A stretch of DNA of 64,000 nt from Rickettsiales bacterium (GTDB taxonomy: Bacteria > Pseudomonadota > Alphaproteobacteria > Rickettsiales > UBA3002), in contig JBJXEM010000004.1 of the NCBI GenBank assembly GCA_046154225.1, forward strand, positions 102 through 64,101, in the 5' to 3' direction. The notes below the pieces were generated by a model that did no database searches, was not told the origin of the DNA, and saw only the letters and a program-made list of their open reading frames with translations. The translations under genes were made by a program, and so were the position numbers. Shown here piece after piece: positions 4,732 to 60,587 of the stretch. Every line of letters begins with the position of its first letter. Within the stretch, counting starts at the first letter, position 1.

Positions 4732-4756
4732 GTTTCGCACGAGCCTCTAGGCGTAC

Positions 4757-4876
4757 GTCATCCCGAATTCATTTCGGGATCCATCAAAGCGCCGTCTGGC
4801 GCGGAACAACCTATTACAGCAATTATACCGTCGCTGATCGCGCCTTGGATGGATCCTGAAACAAGTTCAGGATGAC
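4757..4876. repeat. double-hairpin GTCAT...ATGAC element (E1), no gene
   Basis: The left hairpin is GTCATCCCGAATTCATTTCGGGATCC and the right hairpin is GGATCCTGAAACAAGTTCAGGATGAC. The ends are near-identical to the element at 13412-13526. Confidence 0.8.
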
Positions 4877-4892
4877 GCGGTGGCGAGATCAT

Positions 4893-6605: not shown

Positions 6606-6630
6606 TGGGCAAGCTGCTCCCAAAAACTCC

Positions 6631-6774
6631 GTCATTGCGAGGCATGAACAAACCATTCACTTGCACAAACAGTGAAAACCCAAAGCAATCCATCGGCAAC
6701 ACGGCGTTGCAGATGGATTGCTTCGGCTTTTCAATCTTGATTGGGCGGATAGCCTGTTCATGCCTCGCAATGAC
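6631..6774. repeat. double-ended GTCAT...ATGAC element (E6), no gene
   Basis: GTCATTGCGAGGCATGAACA at the left is inverted as TGTTCATGCCTCGCAATGAC at the right. There is an internal hairpin AAGCAATCCATC...GATGGATTGCTT. Confidence 0.75.
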
Positions 6775-6827
6775 GACGCTTGTGTAGAAATGTTAGCCAA
6801 TCACCAAGGATAGCGATAAGAGGAATT

Positions 6828-7871
6828 ATGACCCAATCCATCTCCACCGTCATCCTAGGCGCATCGGGCTATACCGGTGCGGAATTGTTGCGGCTGCTGC
6901 GTGGGCACCCGGCGTTTAATATCGTGGCGCTGACGGGCGACAGCCAAGCGGGAAAACCCATCGAGCACGTCTATCCACATTTGCGCGGACAGAATTTGCC
7001 AACCCTCGTGAAGCACACGGAAGTCGACTTTACCGATGTGCAACTCGTGTTCTGCTGCCTGCCGCATGGCACTACGCAGGAGATTATCGCGGGCCTGCCT
7101 GCACATGTGCGCATTGTCGACCTGTCAGCCGATTTCCGGCTGCACGATGTGGCCGAATACGCCGCATGGTATGGCCACGAACACCGCGCGCCCCAGCTTC
7201 AGAATGACGCGGTGTACGGGCTTACTGAATTGAACAGAGAACGGATCAAGGCGTCACGCCTTGTGGCGAACCCTGGCTGTTACCCGACCAGCGTGCTGTT
7301 GCCCTTGGTACCGCTTACGCACGCCAAACTCATTGATCCCACCTGCTTGTTTATTGACTCACAATCCGGCGTCTCAGGCGCGGGCCGTAGCGTGAAGCAG
7401 GAGCTGTTATTCACCGAGCTCGAAGGCGGCGTTTCGGCCTACGGCATCGGCCACCACCGACACATGGCCGAGATGGAACAGGAGTTACGCGCCGCCAGCG
7501 GCGTGGCCGACCTCACCGTGTCGTTTACACCGCATTTGGTGCCCATCACCCGCGGCATGCTCAGCACGATTCATGTACGCCTTAGCGAAGGCGTGAGCGC
7601 CGACGATGCCCGCGCGCACCTGACACAACGCTTCGCGAACGAACCGTTTGTCACTGTCCTCACCACCGGTGCGGCCAGCACCCATCAGGTACGTGGCACC
7701 AACCAATGCGTAATGTCGGCGCATGTCGGGCGCACTGCGCGCGAACTGATACTCGTCTCGGTCATCGACAATCTCGTGAAGGGAGCATCCGGCCAAGCCC
7801 TGCAAAATGCGAATCTGATGTTCGGCTTACCCGAGACCACGAACCTCGAACTCACCGCGATTTTTCCGTGA
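6828..7871 (+). CDS. argC: N-acetyl-gamma-glutamyl-phosphate reductase
   Basis: The sequence contains ILGASGYTGAELLRLL and VANPGCYPT (active-site Cys). ATG 6828 is preceded by AAGAGGA. Confidence 0.9.
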   Translation: MTQSISTVILGASGYTGAELLRLLRGHPAFNIVALTGDSQAGKPIEHVYPHLRGQNLPTLVKHTEVDFTDVQLVFCCLPHGTTQEIIAGLPAHVRIVDLSADFRLHDVAEYAAWYGHEHRAPQLQNDAVYGLTELNRERIKASRLVANPGCYPTSVLLPLVPLTHAKLIDPTCLFIDSQSGVSGAGRSVKQELLFTELEGGVSAYGIGHHRHMAEMEQELRAASGVADLTVSFTPHLVPITRGMLSTIHVRLSEGVSADDARAHLTQRFANEPFVTVLTTGAASTHQVRGTNQCVMSAHVGRTARELILVSVIDNLVKGASGQALQNANLMFGLPETTNLELTAIFP

Positions 7872-7944
7872 GTGGTGAGTCGTGAGTTGTGAGTGGTGAA
7901 GAAATGCGATAATCACTACACACCACACACAACGCACCACTCAC
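7868..7944. repeat. inverted heptanucleotide arrays (H1, unit GTGAGTN)
   Basis: GTGAGTG GTGAGTC GTGAGTT GTGAGTG GTGAAGA faces CACTACA CACCACA CACAACG CACCACT CAC. The outer 10 bp are perfectly complementary and 25 of 31 positions pair overall. The array overlaps the argC stop and abuts the next ATG. Confidence 0.85.
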
Positions 7945-8463
7945 ATGCATCAGCCACTCATCCTCCCCTATCACGGCATTCTGCCCACCATCCATCCGGA
8001 TGCGTGGATCGCGCCGGGCGCGGTGGTGATTGGCGATGTGCATATCGGCGCGTTTTCCAATGTGTGGTTCGGCTGCGTGATTCGCGGTGATGTCAACACC
8101 ATCCGCATCGGCGAACGGACGAATATCCAAGACGGCACTATCGTGCATGTCACCCGTAAAACGGGGCCCACCAGCATCGGTTCCGGCATCACTATCGGCC
8201 ATCAGGCCCTCATTCACGCAGCCACGTTGATGGACGATTGTTTCATCGGCATGGGCGCGACCATCATCGACGGGGTGGTGGTGGAATCCGGCGCTTTTGT
8301 AGCCGCAGGGGCCGTCGTCACCCCCCATAAACGCGTGCCCACGGGCCAAATGTGGGGCGGCAACCCCGCTAAATACATGCGCGACCTGAAGCCCGAGGAA
8401 GCCGCGTTCATCTCCGTCAGCGCCCAGAATTATGTTGATTTATCTAGGGAATATAGGGTATAG
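7945..8463 (+). CDS. gamma-class carbonic anhydrase family protein (hexapeptide-repeat, YrdA/PaaY-like)
   Basis: The sequence reads IHPDAWIAPGAVVIGDVHIG..SNVWFGCVIRGD...IRIGERTNIQDG, a left-handed beta-helix pattern. Confidence 0.85.
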   Translation: MHQPLILPYHGILPTIHPDAWIAPGAVVIGDVHIGAFSNVWFGCVIRGDVNTIRIGERTNIQDGTIVHVTRKTGPTSIGSGITIGHQALIHAATLMDDCFIGMGATIIDGVVVESGAFVAAGAVVTPHKRVPTGQMWGGNPAKYMRDLKPEEAAFISVSAQNYVDLSREYRV

Positions 8464-8563
8464 GGTTTAGGGTATAGGGTATATAGTATAGGGTATTATT
8501 TATATAGTTTGGCCTCAATATAAAGCCATTTCTAAACCCTAAACCCTAAACCCTAACCCCTAT
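8445..8563. repeat. inverted heptanucleotide arrays (H2, unit T(A/T)TAGGG / CCCTAAA)
   Basis: Six units TATAGGG/TTTAGGG lie at 8452-8496. They face TAAACCC x3 plus TAACCCC (8533-8563) across an AT-rich spacer. Confidence 0.85.
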
Positions 8564-8635
8564 CTTCACCAAACCTTCACACTCCGCACCCGCTTAACCG
8601 GCTAGAATTAACGTGGATAATTCTTATGGGGACGC

Positions 8636-13346: not shown

Positions 13347-13411
13347 GGCACTGATTGAGCGGAATTACCGCGCGATTGCAAGTAATGAACGCACTATCTA
13401 TGGGCACACCC

Positions 13412-13526
13412 GTCATCCTGAATTTATTTCAGGATCCATCGAAGCGCCGTCTGGCGCTGATAGTCTTCTAATAGGTTATTCGGCAAAGACTTGCCGGGAT
13501 GGATCCTGAAACAAGTTCAGGATGAC
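13412..13526. repeat. double-hairpin GTCAT...ATGAC element (E2), no gene
   Basis: GTCATCCTGAATTTATTTCAGGATCC ... GGATCCTGAAACAAGTTCAGGATGAC. The ends match E1 and the centre differs. Confidence 0.8.
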
Positions 13527-13582
13527 GCCGAAGCATAGTTTTTCCCCAAGAAACTGCCGTTTAGCACCCGTTATGTTTACTA

Positions 13583-13647: not shown

Positions 13648-14112
13648 ATGTACGCAGTAGTAGTTACCGGTGGCAAGCAATACCGGGTCACCGCGGGTGA
13701 CACGATTGAAGTTGAAAAACTCGAAGGCGCAGCCGGCGACAGCGTGAAGCTGGAACAAGTGTTGGCCGTAACCGGCGACCGCCCGATGATTGGCACCCCG
13801 CATGTTTCAGGCGCTTTTGTGGAAGCCCAGATTGTGGCCCAAGGCAAAGGCGATAAAGTTCTGATTTTCAAGAAAAAACGCCGTCACAACTACCGCCGCA
13901 AAAACGGCCACCGCCAGATGATCACTACCTTGTTCATCACCGGCGTGTCGCTTGGCGGTAAGTCGCTCGCCGCGGCCACCCCGAAAACGCTGACCGCGAA
14001 AGCGGCCGCACCCGTGGTGAAAGCCCCGGCGAAAAAAGCAGCTGCCCCGAAAGCGGCGGCTGAAAAGAAAACCGCAACGAAGAGACCTGCGGCGAAGAAG
14101 GCCGCGAAATAG
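13648..14112 (+). CDS. rplU: 50S ribosomal protein L21 with Ala/Lys/Pro-rich C-terminal tail
   Basis: [18 protein letters not shown] is a canonical L21 N-terminus. The C-terminal ~55 aa are a [18 protein letters not shown]-type tail. Confidence 0.9.
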
Positions 14113-14180
14113 TTATTCGTTGTTCGTTGCTCGTTGTCCGCAGGACAGAACGAATAACGAACAACCAGAAACGAGAAACG
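14112..14180. repeat. inverted heptanucleotide arrays (H3, unit GTTNTTC)
   Basis: GTTATTC GTTGTTC GTTGCTC GTTGTCC, then gcag, then GACAGAA CGAATAA CGAACAA CCAGAAA CGAGAAA. The array fills the rplU-rpmA spacer. Confidence 0.8.
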
Positions 14181-14451: not shown

Positions 14452-14540
14452 TGCCATCCCCGCGCAGGCGGGGATCCAGCCCTAAGCGTATCTCGCGGCG
14501 CCGACGCGCCGTACTGGATTCCCGCCTGCGCGGGAATGAC
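14452..14540. repeat. double-hairpin element (E3), no gene
   Basis: CCATCCCCGCGCAGGCGGGGATCC ... GGATTCCCGCCTGCGCGGGAATGAC. The right hairpin has the form ATTCCC-N8-GGGAAT. Confidence 0.75.
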
Positions 14541-14548
14541 AAAAAACG

Positions 14549-21427: not shown

Positions 21428-21891
21428 TGCGCATTACCATCGCGGCTGTCGGCCGCGCCAAGCGCGGGCCGGAAGCGGAACTCATCGCCCATTACCTCAA
21501 GCAAATCCGCTGGGACGTAAGCGTCAAAGAAATCGCCGACGCACCTGCAAATCTATCGCCCGATAACCGCAAAGACCGCGAGGCAAAGACCATTTTAGCC
21601 CTTCTTGGCGCTACGGATTTACTGGTCGCGATGGACTCCACCGGTAAAAACCTGACCAGCCCCGAGCTGGCAACACTCATTCAAAAAGCGCAGAAGAACG
21701 CAACGAAACACATCGTCTTCGCCATCGGCGGGCAGGACGGATTAGCGCCGGAACTCTTACGCCGCGCCAAACACACGCTGGCATTCGGGGCCGCCACCTG
21801 GCCCCACCAGTTGCTGCGCGCCATGCTAATGGAGCAGCTTTTTCGTGCCTACAGCATTACGATTGGGCATCCGTATCATGTGGGGCATTGA
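21427..21891 (+). CDS. rlmH: 23S rRNA (pseudouridine1915-N3)-methyltransferase
   Basis: The sequence begins VRITIAAVGRAK and contains ...FAIGGQDG...LAFGAATWPHQL. GTG 21427 overlaps the rsfS stop. The length of 155 aa is typical. Confidence 0.88.
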   Translation: MRITIAAVGRAKRGPEAELIAHYLKQIRWDVSVKEIADAPANLSPDNRKDREAKTILALLGATDLLVAMDSTGKNLTSPELATLIQKAQKNATKHIVFAIGGQDGLAPELLRRAKHTLAFGAATWPHQLLRAMLMEQLFRAYSITIGHPYHVGH

Positions 21892-21903
21892 GTTTTGCAG
21901 TGC

Positions 21904-21997
21904 GTGGTGAGTAGTGGGTAGTGGGTTGTGAAGCACAAAACCTCATGCTAGGCATTCCTCACCATCCACCATCCACCACTCACCACCCACCACTCAC
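21904..21997. repeat. inverted heptanucleotide arrays (H4, unit GTGGTGA / NNCCACC)
   Basis: GTGGTGA GTAGTGG GTAGTGG GTTGTGA (21904-21933) faces CCTCACC ATCCACC ATCCACC ACTCACC ACCCACC ACTCAC (21957-21997). Of 30 positions, 24 are complementary. The array ends at the gpmI ATG. Confidence 0.85.
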
Positions 21998-28009: not shown

Positions 28010-28846
28010 GCCGACACCCGACACCCGATACCCGACACCCGCCTCGGCTTTAGCCTCGTCGAACTCTCCATTGTTTTGGTCATTCTTGGCCTGCTGACGG
28101 GCGGCATCCTCGCCGGCCAGTCGCTCATCCGCGCGGCACAACTACGATCTGTCAGTACAGAGTATTCACGTTATTACACTGCCACACAGACCTTCCGCGA
28201 TAAATACATGGCCCTTCCTGGAGATATGACAAACGCTACGAAGTTTTGGGGGTTACAAGCTGGGTGTGCTGGTAACTGCCTTACGGTTCCATCAGGTACC
28301 GAGACATTCGACGGGAATGGCGACGGCACGATTCAGTGCATAGGTTGCGATTTAAGCACTACTGGTAATGAAACCTATCGTTTTTGGCAGCAACTTGCGA
28401 ATGCGGGGCTTATTGAGGGCCAATATACAGGCGTACCTGCCGCCGCCCCGGCTTTACCAGAATGGGGGTGGGCATCAAAACTTGGTGTCAATGTCCCAAC
28501 AAGTCGCTTCTCCAACTCGGGATGGAGCATTTTTTGGATCGCCCCCAAGGATATCTCTGATGTTAATTGGTTTGAAGGTGATTACGGTAATATGATGATT
28601 TTTGGTGGTGCGGACAGTACTGGACTGACATGGGTTCCGATGCTTACTCCTGAAGATGCATGGAACATCGATACCAAGTTAGATGATGGAAAGCCTGCAA
28701 CTGGCCGGGTCGTGACCAATGAAAATCAAGGAGGCCAGTGTAGTGATTTAGCGGCCTCTGCTGCTGCATCGCTTGCCGCATCACAATATAAACTGACCAA
28801 TGCTACTATCAGCTGCACACTCGTAATGAAAAGTTCCGCAAATTAA
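28010..28846 (+). CDS. type IV pilin / T2SS pseudopilin-like protein (prepilin N-terminal methylation motif); no in-frame canonical start as sequenced
   Basis: G|FSLVELSIVLVILGLLTGGILAGQSLI at 28046 onward is the class III signal and hydrophobic helix. The only ATGs (27988 and 28006) are in another frame and terminate at TAG 28051-53. GC is lower than in neighbouring genes. Confidence 0.7.
   Translation, partial: ADTRHPIPDTRLGFSLVELSIVLVILGLLTGGILAGQSLIRAAQLRSVSTEYSRYYTATQTFRDKYMALPGDMTNATKFWGLQAGCAGNCLTVPSGTETFDGNGDGTIQCIGCDLSTTGNETYRFWQQLANAGLIEGQYTGVPAAAPALPEWGWASKLGVNVPTSRFSNSGWSIFWIAPKDISDVNWFEGDYGNMMIFGGADSTGLTWVPMLTPEDAWNIDTKLDDGKPATGRVVTNENQGGQCSDLAASAAASLAASQYKLTNATISCTLVMKSSAN
28011..28045 (+). 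repeat. heptanucleotide tandem array (H5, CCGACAC x2, CCGATAC, CCGACAC, degenerate CCGCCTC) inside the pilin leader region
   Basis: Read directly from the sequence. It lies between ATG 28006 and the GFSLVE motif. Confidence 0.85.
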
Positions 28847-30292: not shown

Positions 30293-30362
30293 AGCCTACA
30301 GCTTACAGCCCACAGCTTACAGCTTAGCACAAGGGTGCTGTTGGCTGTCGGCTGTTGGCTAC
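30293..30362. repeat. inverted heptanucleotide arrays (H6, unit AGCYTAC / NGGCTGT)
   Basis: AGCCTAC AGCTTAC AGCCCAC AGCTTAC AGCTTAG CAC, then aagg, then GTGCTGT TGGCTGT CGGCTGT TGGCTAC. It overlaps the engB stop and ends 6 nt from the argB start. Confidence 0.8.
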
Positions 30363-40918: not shown

Positions 40919-40979
40919 GTCATCCTGAACGAAGTGAAGGATCTCACGAAAAGAGATTCTTCGCTTCGCTGAGAATGAC
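40919..40979. repeat. double-hairpin GTCAT...ATGAC element (E4), compact form
   Basis: GTCATCCTGAACGAAGTGAAGGATC ... GATTCTTCGCTTCGCTGAGAATGAC, starting 3 nt after the rpiB stop. Confidence 0.75.
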
Positions 40980-40988
40980 AAAATTGAC

Positions 40989-41021
40989 TAACAACGAACA
41001 ACCAACAACGAGTGACCAGAA
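40989..41021. repeat. single heptanucleotide array (H7, unit NAACAAC)
   Basis: TAACAAC GAACAAC CAACAAC GAGTGAC CAGAA. It is related to the right arm of H3. Confidence 0.7.
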
Positions 41022-42374: not shown

Positions 42375-42423
42375 CAGCAGATAGGCCGCAGATGAGAGCT
42401 TTAGAAACTATGCTTATCACACT

Positions 42424-42513
42424 GTCATGCCAGCGAATGCTGGCATCCAGCTTCTTTAAAAAATCTTGCGATGCAGACGCATCGCACTGGATGCCAGCAT
42501 TCGCTGGCATGAC
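42424..42513. repeat. double-hairpin GTCAT...ATGAC element (E5), no gene
   Basis: GTCATGCCAGCGAATGCTGGCATCC ... GGATGCCAGCATTCGCTGGCATGAC, with a central hairpin TGCGATGCagacGCATCGCA. Confidence 0.8.
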
Positions 42514-42568
42514 AAAACTGGTTTTTCTGACAACGCTTAAACCTGAAACCTGTAACCTATAGGCTCTC

Positions 42569-43012
42569 ATGCATTGTCCTTTCTGTAATCACGAAGACAC
42601 GCAAGTGAAAGACAGCCGTCCGAGTGAGGACGGTTCGTCGATTCGACGTCGGCGTTTTTGTCCCGAGTGCAACTCGCGTTTCACCACGTTCGAGCGTGTG
42701 CAGTTGCGCGAACTCACGGTAGTGAAATCGACTGGCGAGAAAAAACTGTTCGACCGCGAGAAAATCGCCAAATCGATGGCGATTGCCCTGCGCAAACGCC
42801 CGGTGGATGCCGACATGGTGGAAATGGCCATCAACCGCATTGTGCAAAAACTGGAAAGCGAAGGCGAGTCCGACATCCCCACGCAACGCATCGGTTCGCT
42901 GGTGATGGCCGAGCTGAAAAAACTCGATGCCGTCGGCTACATCCGCTACGCCAGCGTCTACCGCGCCTTCTCGGATGCTGAGGATTTCGAGAAGTTCGTA
43001 GATAAACTTTAA
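42569..43012 (+). CDS. nrdR: transcriptional repressor NrdR
   Basis: MHCPFCNHEDTQVKDSR...RRRRFCPECNSRFTTFE is the zinc ribbon, followed by an ATP-cone. Confidence 0.95.
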   Translation: MHCPFCNHEDTQVKDSRPSEDGSSIRRRRFCPECNSRFTTFERVQLRELTVVKSTGEKKLFDREKIAKSMAIALRKRPVDADMVEMAINRIVQKLESEGESDIPTQRIGSLVMAELKKLDAVGYIRYASVYRAFSDAEDFEKFVDKL

Positions 43013-43128: not shown

Positions 43129-44244
43129 ATGACCCAGACAACCGACCATCGCTTCCTTCTCCACGCGCAACGCATGGCCAGCCGCGGCCTTGGCCGCACA
43201 TGGCCCAATCCATCGGTCGGCTGCGTGCTAGTGAAAAACGGAGTGGTGATTGCCGTCGCCCACACGGCGGACGGCGGCCGCCCCCATGCGGAAACGCAGA
43301 CGCTCGCACTCGCGGGCGATGCGGCACGCGGGGCCACGGCTTATGTCACGCTTGAACCCTGCGCCCATCACGGCCACACCCCGCCTTGCGCGCAGGCGCT
43401 GATTGATGCAGGTGTGACGCGGGTCGTGTTTGGGTACGAGGACCCCGACCTGCGTGTTAACGGTCGCGGCGCGGCGATGCTAAAAGCAGCGGGTGTGGAA
43501 ACTACACCACCCACCACCCACCACTCACCACTCACATCTCTCTATCGCGGTTTCTTCCGCCGCGTGCGCCATGGCTTGCCGGAAGTGTCGCTGAAAATCG
43601 CGACCTCGCGCGATAACCATATTGCCGACCCTGCTGGAGTGCATCGCTGGCTGACCGGCGAACAAGCGCGCGCCCATGGGCACATGCTGCGTGCCACGCA
43701 TGATGCGGTGGTCACCGGCATCGGCACCGTGCTCGCTGACGACCCGCTTTACACCGTGCGGTTACTGGGCATCACGCGCCCCAACCTCATACGCGTTGTC
43801 GTCGATCGCAATCTGCAACTGCCGCTACATTGCCAACTCGTGCGCACGGCGGAACAACATCCGCTCTGGTTGCTCACCACCGCCGAGGCGGTGGAGCACA
43901 ACGCCAGCCACGCCACCGAACTTCGCGAACGCGGCGTGGTGCTCCAGGTGGTGGAAACCTTGGCTGACCCGCGCGCCATCCTCACCTTACTCGCAGCACA
44001 AGGCCTCAACCGTGTGCTGGTTGAAGCCGGGGCAGCACTCACGGCGGCATTCATGGGGGCGCGCTGTGTCGACACGCTGCATTGGTACCGCGCGCCGATG
44101 CGTTTTGGAAATACTGGCCAAGCCGCGCCGATTGCACTAGATACGGCGCTGCAAGCGGTTCAGCCTTTGGGTTTGGTGCATCACCAGCCCCTCGGCTCCG
44201 ATATGTATGAACGTTACGAGTTAAAATCATGTTTACCGGACTAA
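43129..44244 (+). CDS. ribD: bifunctional diaminohydroxyphosphoribosylaminopyrimidine deaminase / 5-amino-6-(5-phosphoribosylamino)uracil reductase
   Basis: It has the deaminase zinc motifs HAE and PCxxxxxxPPC (TLEPCAHHGHTPPC), followed by a reductase domain. Confidence 0.92.
   Translation: MTQTTDHRFLLHAQRMASRGLGRTWPNPSVGCVLVKNGVVIAVAHTADGGRPHAETQTLALAGDAARGATAYVTLEPCAHHGHTPPCAQALIDAGVTRVVFGYEDPDLRVNGRGAAMLKAAGVETTPPTTHHSPLTSLYRGFFRRVRHGLPEVSLKIATSRDNHIADPAGVHRWLTGEQARAHGHMLRATHDAVVTGIGTVLADDPLYTVRLLGITRPNLIRVVVDRNLQLPLHCQLVRTAEQHPLWLLTTAEAVEHNASHATELRERGVVLQVVETLADPRAILTLLAAQGLNRVLVEAGAALTAAFMGARCVDTLHWYRAPMRFGNTGQAAPIALDTALQAVQPLGLVHHQPLGSDMYERYELKSCLPD
43505..43535 (+). repeat. heptanucleotide array (H8, CACCACC x2, CACCACT x2) inside the ribD coding sequence
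   Basis: It belongs to the same unit family as the right arm of H4. It is translated in frame as TPPTTHHSPLT. Confidence 0.75.
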
Positions 44245-59038: not shown

Positions 59039-60526
59039 ATGATTACCGTCAGCTTTACCCCTGCCACCACCGCCAAAGCCGGAAGCGGCGTTGCCCTTTT
59101 GGTCGGCGACGACCTCACGTTCGACAAAGCCGCACTCGGTGGCGCGAGCGCCTACGTGACGCAAGCCATCGCCGCCGCGCATTTCACCGGCAAAAAAGGC
59201 GCGACGCTTAACCTCATTTACCCCGGAAAAACGGCGCAGCATTTGTTCGTCATCGGCACGGGCCCTGCGAAAAACTTCACATCACTCATCGCCGAAGAAA
59301 GCGGTGCGCTGGCGGTTGCTGCAGCCTTTGCAGCAAAAGTGACGCATCTCGACATCGTCGCCCACGCCGGAAAAGCCAAGCTGGATGGGGCAGAACTGGC
59401 CGCCCATCTGGGTTATGGCGCACGCCTGCGCGCCTACCGTTTCGACAAATACCGCACCAAAGAAAAAGCCGAAGACAAACCGAAATTGAAAAGCGTGTCA
59501 GTCATCAGCCGCGCCGCCGATAAAGCAAAAAAACTGTTCACGCCGCTTTTGGGCATCGCCGATTCGGTGCATTTCAGCCGTGATCTGGTGAGCGAACCGG
59601 CAAACATCATCTACCCTGAAACCCTTGCCGCCGAGTGCAAAAAACTCGCCAAGCTCGGGGTGAAAGTCGAAGTGCTGGGCGAAGCGGCGATGAAAAAACT
59701 TGGGCTAGGGGCGCTGCTCGGCGTCGGCCAAGGAAGCGTCCGCGAAAGCCAACTCGTGGTGATGCAATGGTACGGCGGCAAAGCCGGGCAAAAACCCGTG
59801 GCACTCGTAGGCAAAGGCGTCACGTTCGACACGGGCGGCATCAGCATCAAACCCGCAAACGGCATGGAGGAAATGAAGTGGGACATGGGGGGTTCGGCCG
59901 CTGTCATCGGCACCATGCGCGCACTCGCCGCGCGTAACGCAAAAGTGAATGTGGTCGGCATCGTCGGCCTCGTGGAAAACATGCCCGACGGCAACGCACA
60001 ACGCCCGGGCGATGTGGTGAAATCCATGTCCGGCCAAACCATCGAAGTCATCAATACCGATGCGGAAGGCCGCCTCGTGCTGGCCGATGCATTGTGGTAC
60101 TGCCAAGACCGTTTCAAGCCGCAATGCATGGTCGATCTCGCCACGCTGACCGGCGCGATTATTGTCTCGCTCGGTTCGCACCGCGCAGGCCTGTTCAGCA
60201 ATAGCGACGCGATGGCCAAAGCGCTCGACGACGCGGGCGAACGTACGGGTGAACGCTTATGGCGCATGCCACTCGGGCCCGAGTACGACAAAATGATCAA
60301 TTGCGACATCGCCGACATGCAGAATGTGGGCGAAGGCCGCGAAGCAGGCTCAACGACCGCCGCACAATTCCTGCAGCGTTTCGTGAACGACACCCCGTGG
60401 GTGCATCTCGACATCGCAGGCGTAGCGTGGGCCAACAAACCGCATTCGCCACTCTACCCCAAGGGAGCGGTAGGCTGGGGCGTGCGGTTGCTGAATGATT
60501 GGATTAAAACTAACTATGAAAAATAG
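59039..60526 (+). CDS. pepA: leucyl aminopeptidase (M17)
   Basis: The sequence contains VGKGVTFDTGGISIKP and NTDAEGRLVLADAL. It is divergent from lptFG, as in many proteobacteria. Confidence 0.93.
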   Translation: MITVSFTPATTAKAGSGVALLVGDDLTFDKAALGGASAYVTQAIAAAHFTGKKGATLNLIYPGKTAQHLFVIGTGPAKNFTSLIAEESGALAVAAAFAAKVTHLDIVAHAGKAKLDGAELAAHLGYGARLRAYRFDKYRTKEKAEDKPKLKSVSVISRAADKAKKLFTPLLGIADSVHFSRDLVSEPANIIYPETLAAECKKLAKLGVKVEVLGEAAMKKLGLGALLGVGQGSVRESQLVVMQWYGGKAGQKPVALVGKGVTFDTGGISIKPANGMEEMKWDMGGSAAVIGTMRALAARNAKVNVVGIVGLVENMPDGNAQRPGDVVKSMSGQTIEVINTDAEGRLVLADALWYCQDRFKPQCMVDLATLTGAIIVSLGSHRAGLFSNSDAMAKALDDAGERTGERLWRMPLGPEYDKMINCDIADMQNVGEGREAGSTTAAQFLQRFVNDTPWVHLDIAGVAWANKPHSPLYPKGAVGWGVRLLNDWIKTNYEK

Positions 60527-60587
60527 CCGACAGCCGACAGCCGACAGCCTAGAGCTGTTAGCTGTTAGCTGTCAGCTCTAGGCTGAC
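60524..60587. repeat. inverted heptanucleotide arrays (H9, unit AGCCGAC / GCTGTTA)
   Basis: AGCCGAC x3 and AGCCTAG, then GCTGTTA GCTGTTA GCTGTCA. There is a perfect 13-bp stem, CAGCCTAGAGCTG (60544-56) with CAGCTCTAGGCTG (60573-85). The array overlaps the pepA stop and abuts the holC ATG. Confidence 0.85.

Follow-up and report, generated by a model that had tools for sequence, protein, structure and literature searches.

A 64-kb stretch of DNA (the window; G+C content ~58%), which belongs to a 67,255-bp contig from a metagenome-assembled genome entered at NCBI as 'Rickettsiales bacterium', contains arrays of heptanucleotide units at ten loci, six of which are pairs of arrays in inverted orientation between co-directional genes. 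We tentatively interpret them, with somewhat less than even confidence, as lineage-specific arrays of the short tandemly repeated repetitive (STRR) type, made by slippage and forming intercistronic RNA hairpins with a post-transcriptional role. They are best explained as specific to one sub-lineage of uncultured alphaproteobacteria. A serious rival, to which we give a substantial but smaller probability, is that the arrays are a neutral mutational by-product. The evidence comes from this window and from contigs of relatives, and statements that concern whole genomes are extrapolated from these.

Period-7 arrays in the window

Tandem Repeats Finder (TRF) detected period-7 arrays at each of the nine loci (H1 to H9) listed in the first-pass annotation, an earlier reading of this DNA from its letters alone. 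Two spans were called at H1 (7868-7899 and 7914-7944), H2 (8452-8496 and 8532-8562), H4 (21899-21930 and 21960-21997), H6 (30293-30326 and 30337-30360) and H9 (60525-60549 and 60553-60577), and a single span at H3 (14112-14137), H5 (28011-28041), H7 (40990-41011) and H8 (43505-43535). The list of nine had missed a tenth array of three units at 42539-42560. All nine had also been placed in intergenic spacers, which is true of most of them; the array at 43505-43535 lies inside ribD, and that at 28011-28041 between an ATG and a prepilin motif.

The window was then scanned for autocorrelation at lags of 4 to 15 with a threshold of at least 18 matches out of 21. Seven regions were found for period 7, compared to 0-2 for each of the other periods. 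The comparison with shuffled DNA proposed in the first-pass annotation was carried out with the same scan, and 50 dinucleotide-preserving shuffles of the window yielded no region at any period. At a looser threshold, ten period-7 regions were found in the window as against four in 1.36 Mb from 116 unrelated bacterial loci, which corresponds to a density ~50-fold that of unrelated bacterial DNA. This background set includes ArgC matches (one genome per species, at most 70% identity) and GpmI matches (JGI metagenomes, at most 65%), and the relatives retrieved by these two scans were without arrays; the closest ArgC in the one-genome-per-species set shares only 70% identity with that of the window. 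Because of the ~50-fold excess, the lack of enrichment of other periods and the empty shuffles, the period-7 signal is real, specific to 7 and does not derive from coding periodicity. In three respects the arrays are of the STRR type: the units are exactly 7 nt long (by TRF at all loci, with period 7 alone enriched), the loci are many, dispersed and mainly intergenic, far above what chance would give (ten in 64 kb), and the unit families are few (~4).

Inverted pairs between co-directional genes

Gene identities were assigned with NCBIfam and Pfam and by synteny with relatives. Folding and an inverted-repeat search recognised inverted pairs at H1, H2, H3, H4, H6 and H9, so that the arrangement described in the first-pass annotation is present, at six loci instead of the seven counted there. 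The paired loci are the following.

H1, 7868-7944, plus strand: between argC and the gamma-carbonic anhydrase (gamma-CA) gene
H1 5' arm, 7868-7899, plus strand: (GTGAGTG)n, with the argC stop codon TGA (7869-7871) inside; found by TRF, inverted-repeat search and folding
H1 3' arm, 7913-7944, plus strand: (CACCACA/CACTCAC)n, its last base adjoining the gamma-CA ATG (7945), without Shine-Dalgarno motif
H2, 8445-8567, plus strand: between the gamma-CA gene and an open reading frame (ORF) of unknown identity
H2 5' arm, 8445-8496, plus strand: (TATAGGG/TTTAGGG)n, coding for the last residues and the stop (8461-8463) of gamma-CA; fits a G-quadruplex motif
H2 3' arm, 8529-8567, plus strand: (CCCTAAA)n
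H3, 14112-14180, plus strand: between rplU and rpmA
H3 5' arm, 14112-14139, plus strand: (GTTGTTC)n, its first base completing the rplU stop codon
H3 3' arm, 14149-14180, plus strand: (GAACGAA/GAACAAC)n, with a GGAG Shine-Dalgarno motif and then the rpmA ATG after it
H4, 21900-21997, plus strand: between rlmH and gpmI
H4 5' arm, 21900-21931, plus strand: (GTGGTGA/GTAGTGG)n, 8 nt past the rlmH stop codon (21889-21891)
H4 3' arm, 21956-21997, plus strand: (ATCCACC/ACTCACC)n, running up to the gpmI ATG (21998)
H6, 30293-30362, minus strand: between engB and argB
H6 3' arm on the sense strand, 30293-30327, minus strand: (AGCTTAC)n on the plus strand, 4 nt before the argB ATG
H6 5' arm on the sense strand, 30337-30362, minus strand: (GCTGTTG)n on the plus strand, with the engB stop (30359-30361) inside
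H9, 60524-60587, plus strand: between pepA and holC
H9 5' arm, 60524-60549, plus strand: (AGCCGAC)n, opening with the pepA stop TAG (60524-60526)
H9 3' arm, 60553-60587, plus strand: (AGCTGTT)n and an alternative 13-bp stem, running up to the holC ATG (60588)

All intergenic arrays lie between co-directional genes. Among spacers of at least 40 nt on a gene map corrected by synteny, they occupy 8-9 of ~17 co-directional ones and none of ~15 divergent or convergent ones (Fisher P 0.001-0.003). The 5' arm begins at the upstream stop codon or at most 8 nt from it in all six pairs of the window, and the pairs of relatives, read less systematically, show the same adjacency. The distance from the end of the 3' arm to the next ATG is 0-4 nt at H1, H4, H6 and H9, 10-18 nt at H3 and, as an exception, 68 nt at H2. 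The precise fit between co-directional genes and against the upstream stop, as claimed in the first-pass annotation, was thus confirmed for the intergenic arrays, and the stop codons of argC, the gamma-CA gene, engB and pepA, said to be overlapped, all lie inside arrays.

The stems reported earlier were also recovered: the H1 arms of 32 nt show 81% complementarity, their outer 10 bp being perfect, the H4 arms of 32 nt likewise reach 81%, and H9 contains a perfect 13-bp stem. Folded as RNA, the six paired loci have predicted energies of -25 to -51 kcal/mol (z -2.8 to -4.9 compared to shuffles), H1 reaching -36.6 kcal/mol (z -4.6). In the predicted folds of both the window and the relatives the stems are regular, with ~6 paired positions followed by one mismatch and this pattern recurring every 7 nt. 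Such a pattern is expected if homogenisation within arms outpaces matching between arms. Intrinsic (Rho-independent) terminators were considered and rejected, as no T-run follows any of the 3' arms and an ATG or a Shine-Dalgarno motif comes directly after them. No match to Rfam was found at gathering thresholds anywhere in the window.

Both arms of H2 (8447-8479 and 8537-8560) satisfy the motif of four G3 runs with spacers of 1-7 nt (G3N1-7 x4), one on each strand. The unit of one H2 arm is exactly the plant telomere repeat (TTTAGGG/CCCTAAA).

Conservation of the arrays in relatives

Array-bearing relatives were found through proteins 73-82% identical to the GpmI of the window. In each of the contigs L118, L119/L120, L121 and L122 the orthologous rlmH-gpmI spacer contains an inverted pair of heptamer arrays, which answers the question raised in the first-pass annotation as to whether the arrays occur beyond the window. 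The units of this spacer are the following.

Window: 5' arm GTGGGTA, 3' arm CACCACC
L118: 5' arm GTGAGTC, 3' arm GACTCAC
L119: 5' arm GTGGATA, 3' arm TATCCAC
L121: 5' arm GCAGTTA, 3' arm TAACTGC

When the base pairs were compared by repeat register, four positions were conserved and the others changed in both arms with the pairing kept. Since the two arms have changed together, it is complementarity rather than sequence that persists in this orthologous hairpin. The hairpins of the relatives have z-scores of -4.4 to -7.6, weaker in L122. Between these genomes, gpmI is 45-61% identical at four-fold degenerate sites, compared to 33-35% expected at saturation. Over such divergence, unconstrained sequence would have lost a complementarity of 25 bp.

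Other sites are shared less widely. The argB-engB pair is common to the window and L119, with units that differ by one substitution (AGCTTAC and AGGTTAC). L119 has a pair at proA-nadD and L122 one at obg-proB, neither of which is present in the window, and the rplU-rpmA array of the window is absent from L119.

Because called ORFs run through the arrays in L119 (8157-8230) and L122 (4400-4485 and 4683-4857), the arrays distort automatic start and stop calls. The called nadD start overlaps proA in L119; in L122 the 3' end of obg is affected and proB is called ~60 codons longer.

Unit families

The 29 consensus units of the arrays in the window and the relatives fall into ~4 groups under rotation and strand symmetry, namely GTGAGTN/NACTCAC, CAGCYRA, GTTGTTC and TATAGGG/TAACCTN. 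Among 13 independent loci, ten links at one mismatch or less were found versus 2.65 expected (P ~0.0015), and two exact unit matches versus 0.12 expected. Units do differ between loci, as the first-pass annotation had stated, and they do so within these few shared families, not by free variation. In addition, stretches of 12-16 nt are common to unrelated loci, CACCACTCACAT at H1, H4 and H8 and AACGAACAACCA at H3 and H7.

This recurrence of unit families and of the stretches CACCACTCACAT and AACGAACAACCA at unrelated loci would fit copies of small mobile elements, resembling miniature inverted-repeat transposable elements (MITEs) or repetitive extragenic palindromic (REP) sequences, with heptamer arrays as inverted ends. 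One array lies inside a gene, and Rickettsia palindromic elements also insert inside genes. We nevertheless consider such an origin very unlikely. No target-site duplications are visible at the arrays, they have no conserved body or loop, unit number and sequence differ at every locus, and their ends grade into sequence homologous to that of array-free relatives; for want of a conserved element and of duplications, and given this continuity, membership of a MITE or REP family was rejected. Furthermore, a truly MITE-like family with conserved arms exists separately in other spacers of the window. It consists of nested palindromes of 60-165 nt, unrelated to the heptamer arrays and MITE- or REP-like, with arms such as CGTCATCCYGAA...GGATCCATC or TGTCATGCCAGCGAATGCTGGCATCCAG. 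Four copies lie in convergent or divergent spacers and three in co-directional ones (rpsI-argC, rpiB-glyA and glyA-nrdR), at these coordinates.

4756-4877: MITE-/REP-like palindrome
6621-6784: MITE-/REP-like palindrome
13411-13527: MITE-/REP-like palindrome
14452-14541: MITE-/REP-like palindrome
40919-40979: MITE-/REP-like palindrome
42423-42514: MITE-/REP-like palindrome

That the period is strictly 7 nt and the unit families are few could also reflect protein-binding sites set in a 7-nt register, on RNA for OB-fold proteins such as cold-shock proteins and S1, or on DNA for ribbon-helix-helix repressors of the omega type. OB-fold proteins of these kinds cover ~7 nt each, and omega-type repressors bind direct or inverted heptads. 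The proteins S1, Csp and Csr have been proposed for the TAACTGA repeats (PMC4679880), which the single arrays directly 5' of start codons recall. We regard this explanation as unlikely, however. With four or more unrelated unit families, either a non-specific binder or several specificities would be required, the window yielded no candidate protein, and no array lies in the promoter-bearing divergent spacers. An operator of the omega type was rejected, no unit being within one mismatch of the omega heptad.

Single arrays

H5, H7 and H8 (at 28011, 40989 and 43505) are single, C/A-rich arrays that are unstructured in folding. Together with the tenth array they are the following.

H5, 28011-28041, plus strand: (CCGACAC)4.4, between ATG 28006 and a prepilin G/FSLVE motif (GGC at 28046)
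H7, 40989-41021, plus strand: (AACAACG/AACAACC)n, running up to the glyA ATG (41022); same unit family as H3
Tenth array, 42539-42560, plus strand: three units, AAACCTG, AAACCTG and TAACCTA, 9 nt before the ATG of ORF 42569-43012
H8, 43505-43535, plus strand: (CACCACC/CACTCAC)n, in frame inside ribD (43129-44244), encoding TTPPTTHHSPLT

The ORF following the tenth array is probably nrdR, judging from its position in a conserved cluster. H8 belongs to the unit family of H1 and H4, and the TTPPTTHHSPLT that it encodes sits in the linker between the deaminase and reductase domains of RibD. It replaces, without change in length, the stretch aligned to 'VREGILADQAERL' of Bacillus subtilis RibD (PDB 2b3z).

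H5 precedes a pilin-like gene, annotated by NCBI as a type II secretion system protein, whose sole upstream ATG (28006) is out of frame, by one heptamer, with the G/FSLVELSIVLVILG body of the gene. Deletion of one unit would give the in-frame leader MSRHPIPDTRLG/FSLVE, which resembles the leaders of 3-11 residues in homologues. H5 is thus a possible heptamer-driven phase switch, as judged from its reading frames. As 7 is not a multiple of 3, changes in unit number could in principle switch genes on and off, and the arrays might be contingency loci. We find this highly doubtful as an account of the arrays, and phase variation was rejected as a general explanation. H5 is the only locus to suggest it, the remaining arrays being situated beside housekeeping genes and outside reading frames. 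Even at H5, NCBI annotates an in-frame ATA start, created by a C-to-T change in the third unit, and the unit number is the same in two samples, one contig breaking at the tract. Three short Logan contigs (L037, L125 and L126, from exact-protein look-ups of genes of the window) are identical to the window, with no variation in unit number; for GpmI of the window, such a look-up returned no record.

Two of these contigs, the short-read contigs L037 and L125 from SRR28962028, which stem from the same strain, end inside or exactly at arrays (the 3' arm of H2 and the start of H5). These ends may reflect assembly breakage or heterogeneity of unit number in the SRR28962028 sample.

Possible origin and role of the arrays

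Comparison with an array-free relative gives a view of how the arrays may have arisen. The spacer between argC and the gamma-CA gene measures 22 nt with a GGAG motif in L128, versus a 73-nt hairpin without Shine-Dalgarno motif in the window. The gamma-CA gene of L128 ends in ...GAATATAAAGGGTTGTAA, with the 7-nt inverted partner ACCCTTT a few bases downstream. At those same places the window has GAATATAGGGTATAGGG... and (CCCTAAA)n, the conserved Glu-Tyr codons lying within the first unit. To judge from such alignments, the arrays look like the product of a local motif that was amplified in place together with its small inverted partner, and not like a foreign insertion.

According to the STRR-type reading, replication slippage would amplify a short local motif or a small hairpin beside stop codons inside operons, and ongoing slippage would keep the units alike within each arm. 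The complementarity of the arms would be maintained by selection, by quasi-palindrome template switching, a mutational process able to match arms, or by both. Because they lie inside operons, the arrays would be transcribed, and either strand is predicted to form long hairpins, with six paired bases and one mismatch per unit, reaching from the upstream stop to or near the next start. The most likely role of these predicted hairpins would be post-transcriptional. They might act as intercistronic structures shielding the upstream mRNA segment, and translation of the downstream gene, often without a Shine-Dalgarno motif, might depend on the ribosome terminating in the 5' arm; mRNA stabilisation or translational coupling by the hairpins is speculative, and the same ideas have been published for cyanobacterial STRR hairpins (PMC2670836). 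The single C/A-rich arrays would serve as unstructured leaders. In favour of this reading are the enrichment of period 7 alone, the six predicted hairpins, the confinement of intergenic arrays to co-directional spacers, the covarying rlmH-gpmI pair, the argB-engB pair shared with L119 and the signs of amplification in place.

Several observations weigh against this interpretation. In all six hairpins of the window the antisense strand is predicted to fold as stably as, or more stably than, the sense strand, and L119 and L121 reverse this, the sense strand being more stable. Because there is no consistent strand preference, the predicted folding energies do not separate a constraint at the RNA level from one at the DNA level. 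The persistence of the periodic mismatches argues against strong selection for pairing, and template-switch correction between the two arms can make them covary even in the absence of selection. The gpmI gene lacks a Shine-Dalgarno motif even in the array-free relative L124, so that loss of this motif is no specific evidence for coupling; the motif is clear at some genes of the window (argC and rpmA) in a survey that was noisy, as longest-ORF starts were used. No arrays were found in 7-21 kb from each of six relatives at a similar distance (L124, L127, L128, L129, whose sequence was drawn from a 2.35-Mb contig, L130 and L001), and the rlmH-gpmI spacer of L124 contains only a trace, GGCGGATGGCGGATG. 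Since relatives equally close are without them, the arrays are dispensable; they are old at some sites and have been gained and lost at others. Finally, a purely local origin does not account for unit families that recur at unrelated loci.

Much of this would suit arrays that have no function at all. Slippage by 7 nt might be favoured by the replication or repair machinery of the lineage, arrays growing until they meet constrained sequence (a stop codon, a Shine-Dalgarno motif or a start codon) and the pairs with their complementarity arising from quasi-palindrome template switching. The patchy presence among close relatives, the mismatches left uncorrected, the folding without strand asymmetry and the encroachment on coding sequence where it is tolerated (the gamma-CA C-terminus and the ribD linker) are all in line with such a by-product, and polymerase slippage is the published explanation for heptamers (Mrazek 2007, as cited in PMC4692102). 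Against it, the arrays are found only in co-directional spacers, although longer divergent and convergent ones exist and host a different repeat family. The rlmH-gpmI hairpin, moreover, persists where synonymous sites are near saturation, and the sharing of unit families between loci is non-random. We keep the STRR-type interpretation with a post-transcriptional role in first place, as a tentative one, and the neutral origin as a quite possible second.

A more ambitious proposal is that the inverted pairs are a selected, clade-wide device bridging stop and start codons. The hairpin would loop out the spacer, and the terminating ribosome would melt the stem and reach the ATG at the foot of the 3' arm, so that genes lacking a Shine-Dalgarno motif could be translationally coupled. 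In that case the 7 nt of the unit would be a molecular ruler, set by the stretch that an OB-fold RNA chaperone covers or by the helicase step of the ribosome, and not a quirk of slippage. We hold this to be improbable; if true, the same logic might extend to the heptamer repeats known from cyanobacteria, Xanthomonas and Beggiatoa.

Comparison with known heptamer systems

On record in bacteria since 1990, heptamer repeats have, to our knowledge, no established mechanism or function. The lineage described here adds a new, phylogenetically distant host, and its array-rich and array-free relatives provide a natural comparison for tracing the cause. An array in frame inside a gene (ribD) and a possible phase switch (H5) are represented by one example each. 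In practice, short-read assemblies are broken by the arrays, at which two Logan contigs end; the arrays also mislead start-codon calls and can occur inside genes.

The first-pass annotation called the arrays STRR-like in an alphaproteobacterial context, a sound label in that the main STRR-type features are shared. Two of its views on novelty are not supported by the literature. It knew of no equivalent of the cyanobacterial STRRs in this kind of genome, whereas heptameric simple sequence repeats are over-represented in many bacterial genomes, with polymerase slippage proposed as the cause (Mrazek 2007, as cited in PMC4692102). It also knew of no description of the inverted-array architecture, whereas this has been reported in Xanthomonas (PMC4692102) and in the hupS-hupL hairpins of cyanobacteria (PMC2670836). 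For Alphaproteobacteria, no report of heptamer arrays was found in a literature search, which is not proof of absence.

In the cyanobacteria Nostoc, Anabaena and Lyngbya, the hupS-hupL spacers contain 7-bp STRRs capable of forming hairpins, which may raise transcript stability or couple translation (PMC2670836). The arrays described here resemble cyanobacterial STRRs in their 7-bp units, their dispersed and mostly intergenic loci, their few families and their hairpins between co-transcribed genes. They differ in their host, an uncultured alphaproteobacterium, and in the orthologous conservation with compensatory change that is documented here. In heterocystous cyanobacteria, the consensus units of STRR1, STRR2 and STRR3 are CCCCAGT, TTGGTCA and CAACAGT. 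No unit of the window is identical to these consensus units, and only one, that of the second H6 array (H6b), is one mismatch from STRR3; the nadD array of L119 is one mismatch from STRR2.

Xanthomonas genomes contain ~185 GGGAATC arrays each, with 70-75 convergent inverted pairs; they lie mostly between co-directional ORFs at a mean of 28 nt from the upstream ORF, and their positions are conserved between species while length and sequence vary (PMC4692102). GGGGAYT is the corresponding heptamer of Nostoc (Rehm et al. 2015, PMC4692102). The likeness to the present arrays is close, as these too are intergenic heptamers, frequently in inverted pairs (6 of 10 loci), between co-directional ORFs and abutting the upstream one. 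Xanthomonas, however, has a single G-rich family capable of forming G-quadruplexes instead of ~4 families, and the spacers of the window are filled from stop codon to start codon. No unit is within one mismatch of GGGAATC or GGGGAYT. The G3N1-7 x4 motif occurs, among the arrays, only at H2 and on the C-rich strand of H5, and H2 (TATAGGG/CCCTAAA) is the sole array that resembles the G-quadruplex-forming heptamers of Xanthomonas and Nostoc.

TAACTGA direct repeats of 2-6 units, nearly all intergenic, occur in marine Beggiatoaceae and in some Cyanobacteria and Bacteroidetes (MacGregor 2015, PMC4679880). Their commonest end point is 1 nt ahead of a start codon. Some reach back over the end of the preceding ORF, and they stand before essential genes including those of ribosomal proteins; each heptamer is bound by a single CspB protein (PMC4679880). 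The present arrays likewise adjoin start codons, and the (TAACTGC)n array of L121 is one mismatch away, although the TAACTGA unit itself is absent from the window. In contrast to the arrays found here, most of which are inverted pairs with stable predicted hairpins, the TAACTGA repeats form one family, are direct (with one inverted case) and are predicted to be unstructured.

Heptamer-like runs were also seen in unrelated bacteria. In three Halomonas species (L015, 20295-20327, and also L016 and L017), a conserved C/A-rich run of CCCTTAA/CCCTAAA sits just 5' of the Shine-Dalgarno motif of the downstream ORF, the flanking ORFs being putatively atpB and atpE as read from their sequence. A JGI metagenome contig of an unrelated bacterium (L105, 1-104) has another long array, ~14 perfect copies of CTGCAAC, at its first end.

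Imperfect intercistronic hairpins are known from REP elements and bacterial interspersed mosaic elements (BIMEs) and from the puf operon of Rhodobacter, and could stabilise the upstream mRNA segment. The paired arrays are comparable to these in being imperfect hairpins between co-transcribed genes. REP elements, in contrast, have a conserved family sequence without internal 7-nt periodicity, and no sequence relation to the arrays of the window was found. The arrays share the defining features of the known heptamer repeats but none of the named unit sequences, in a different phylum-level lineage.

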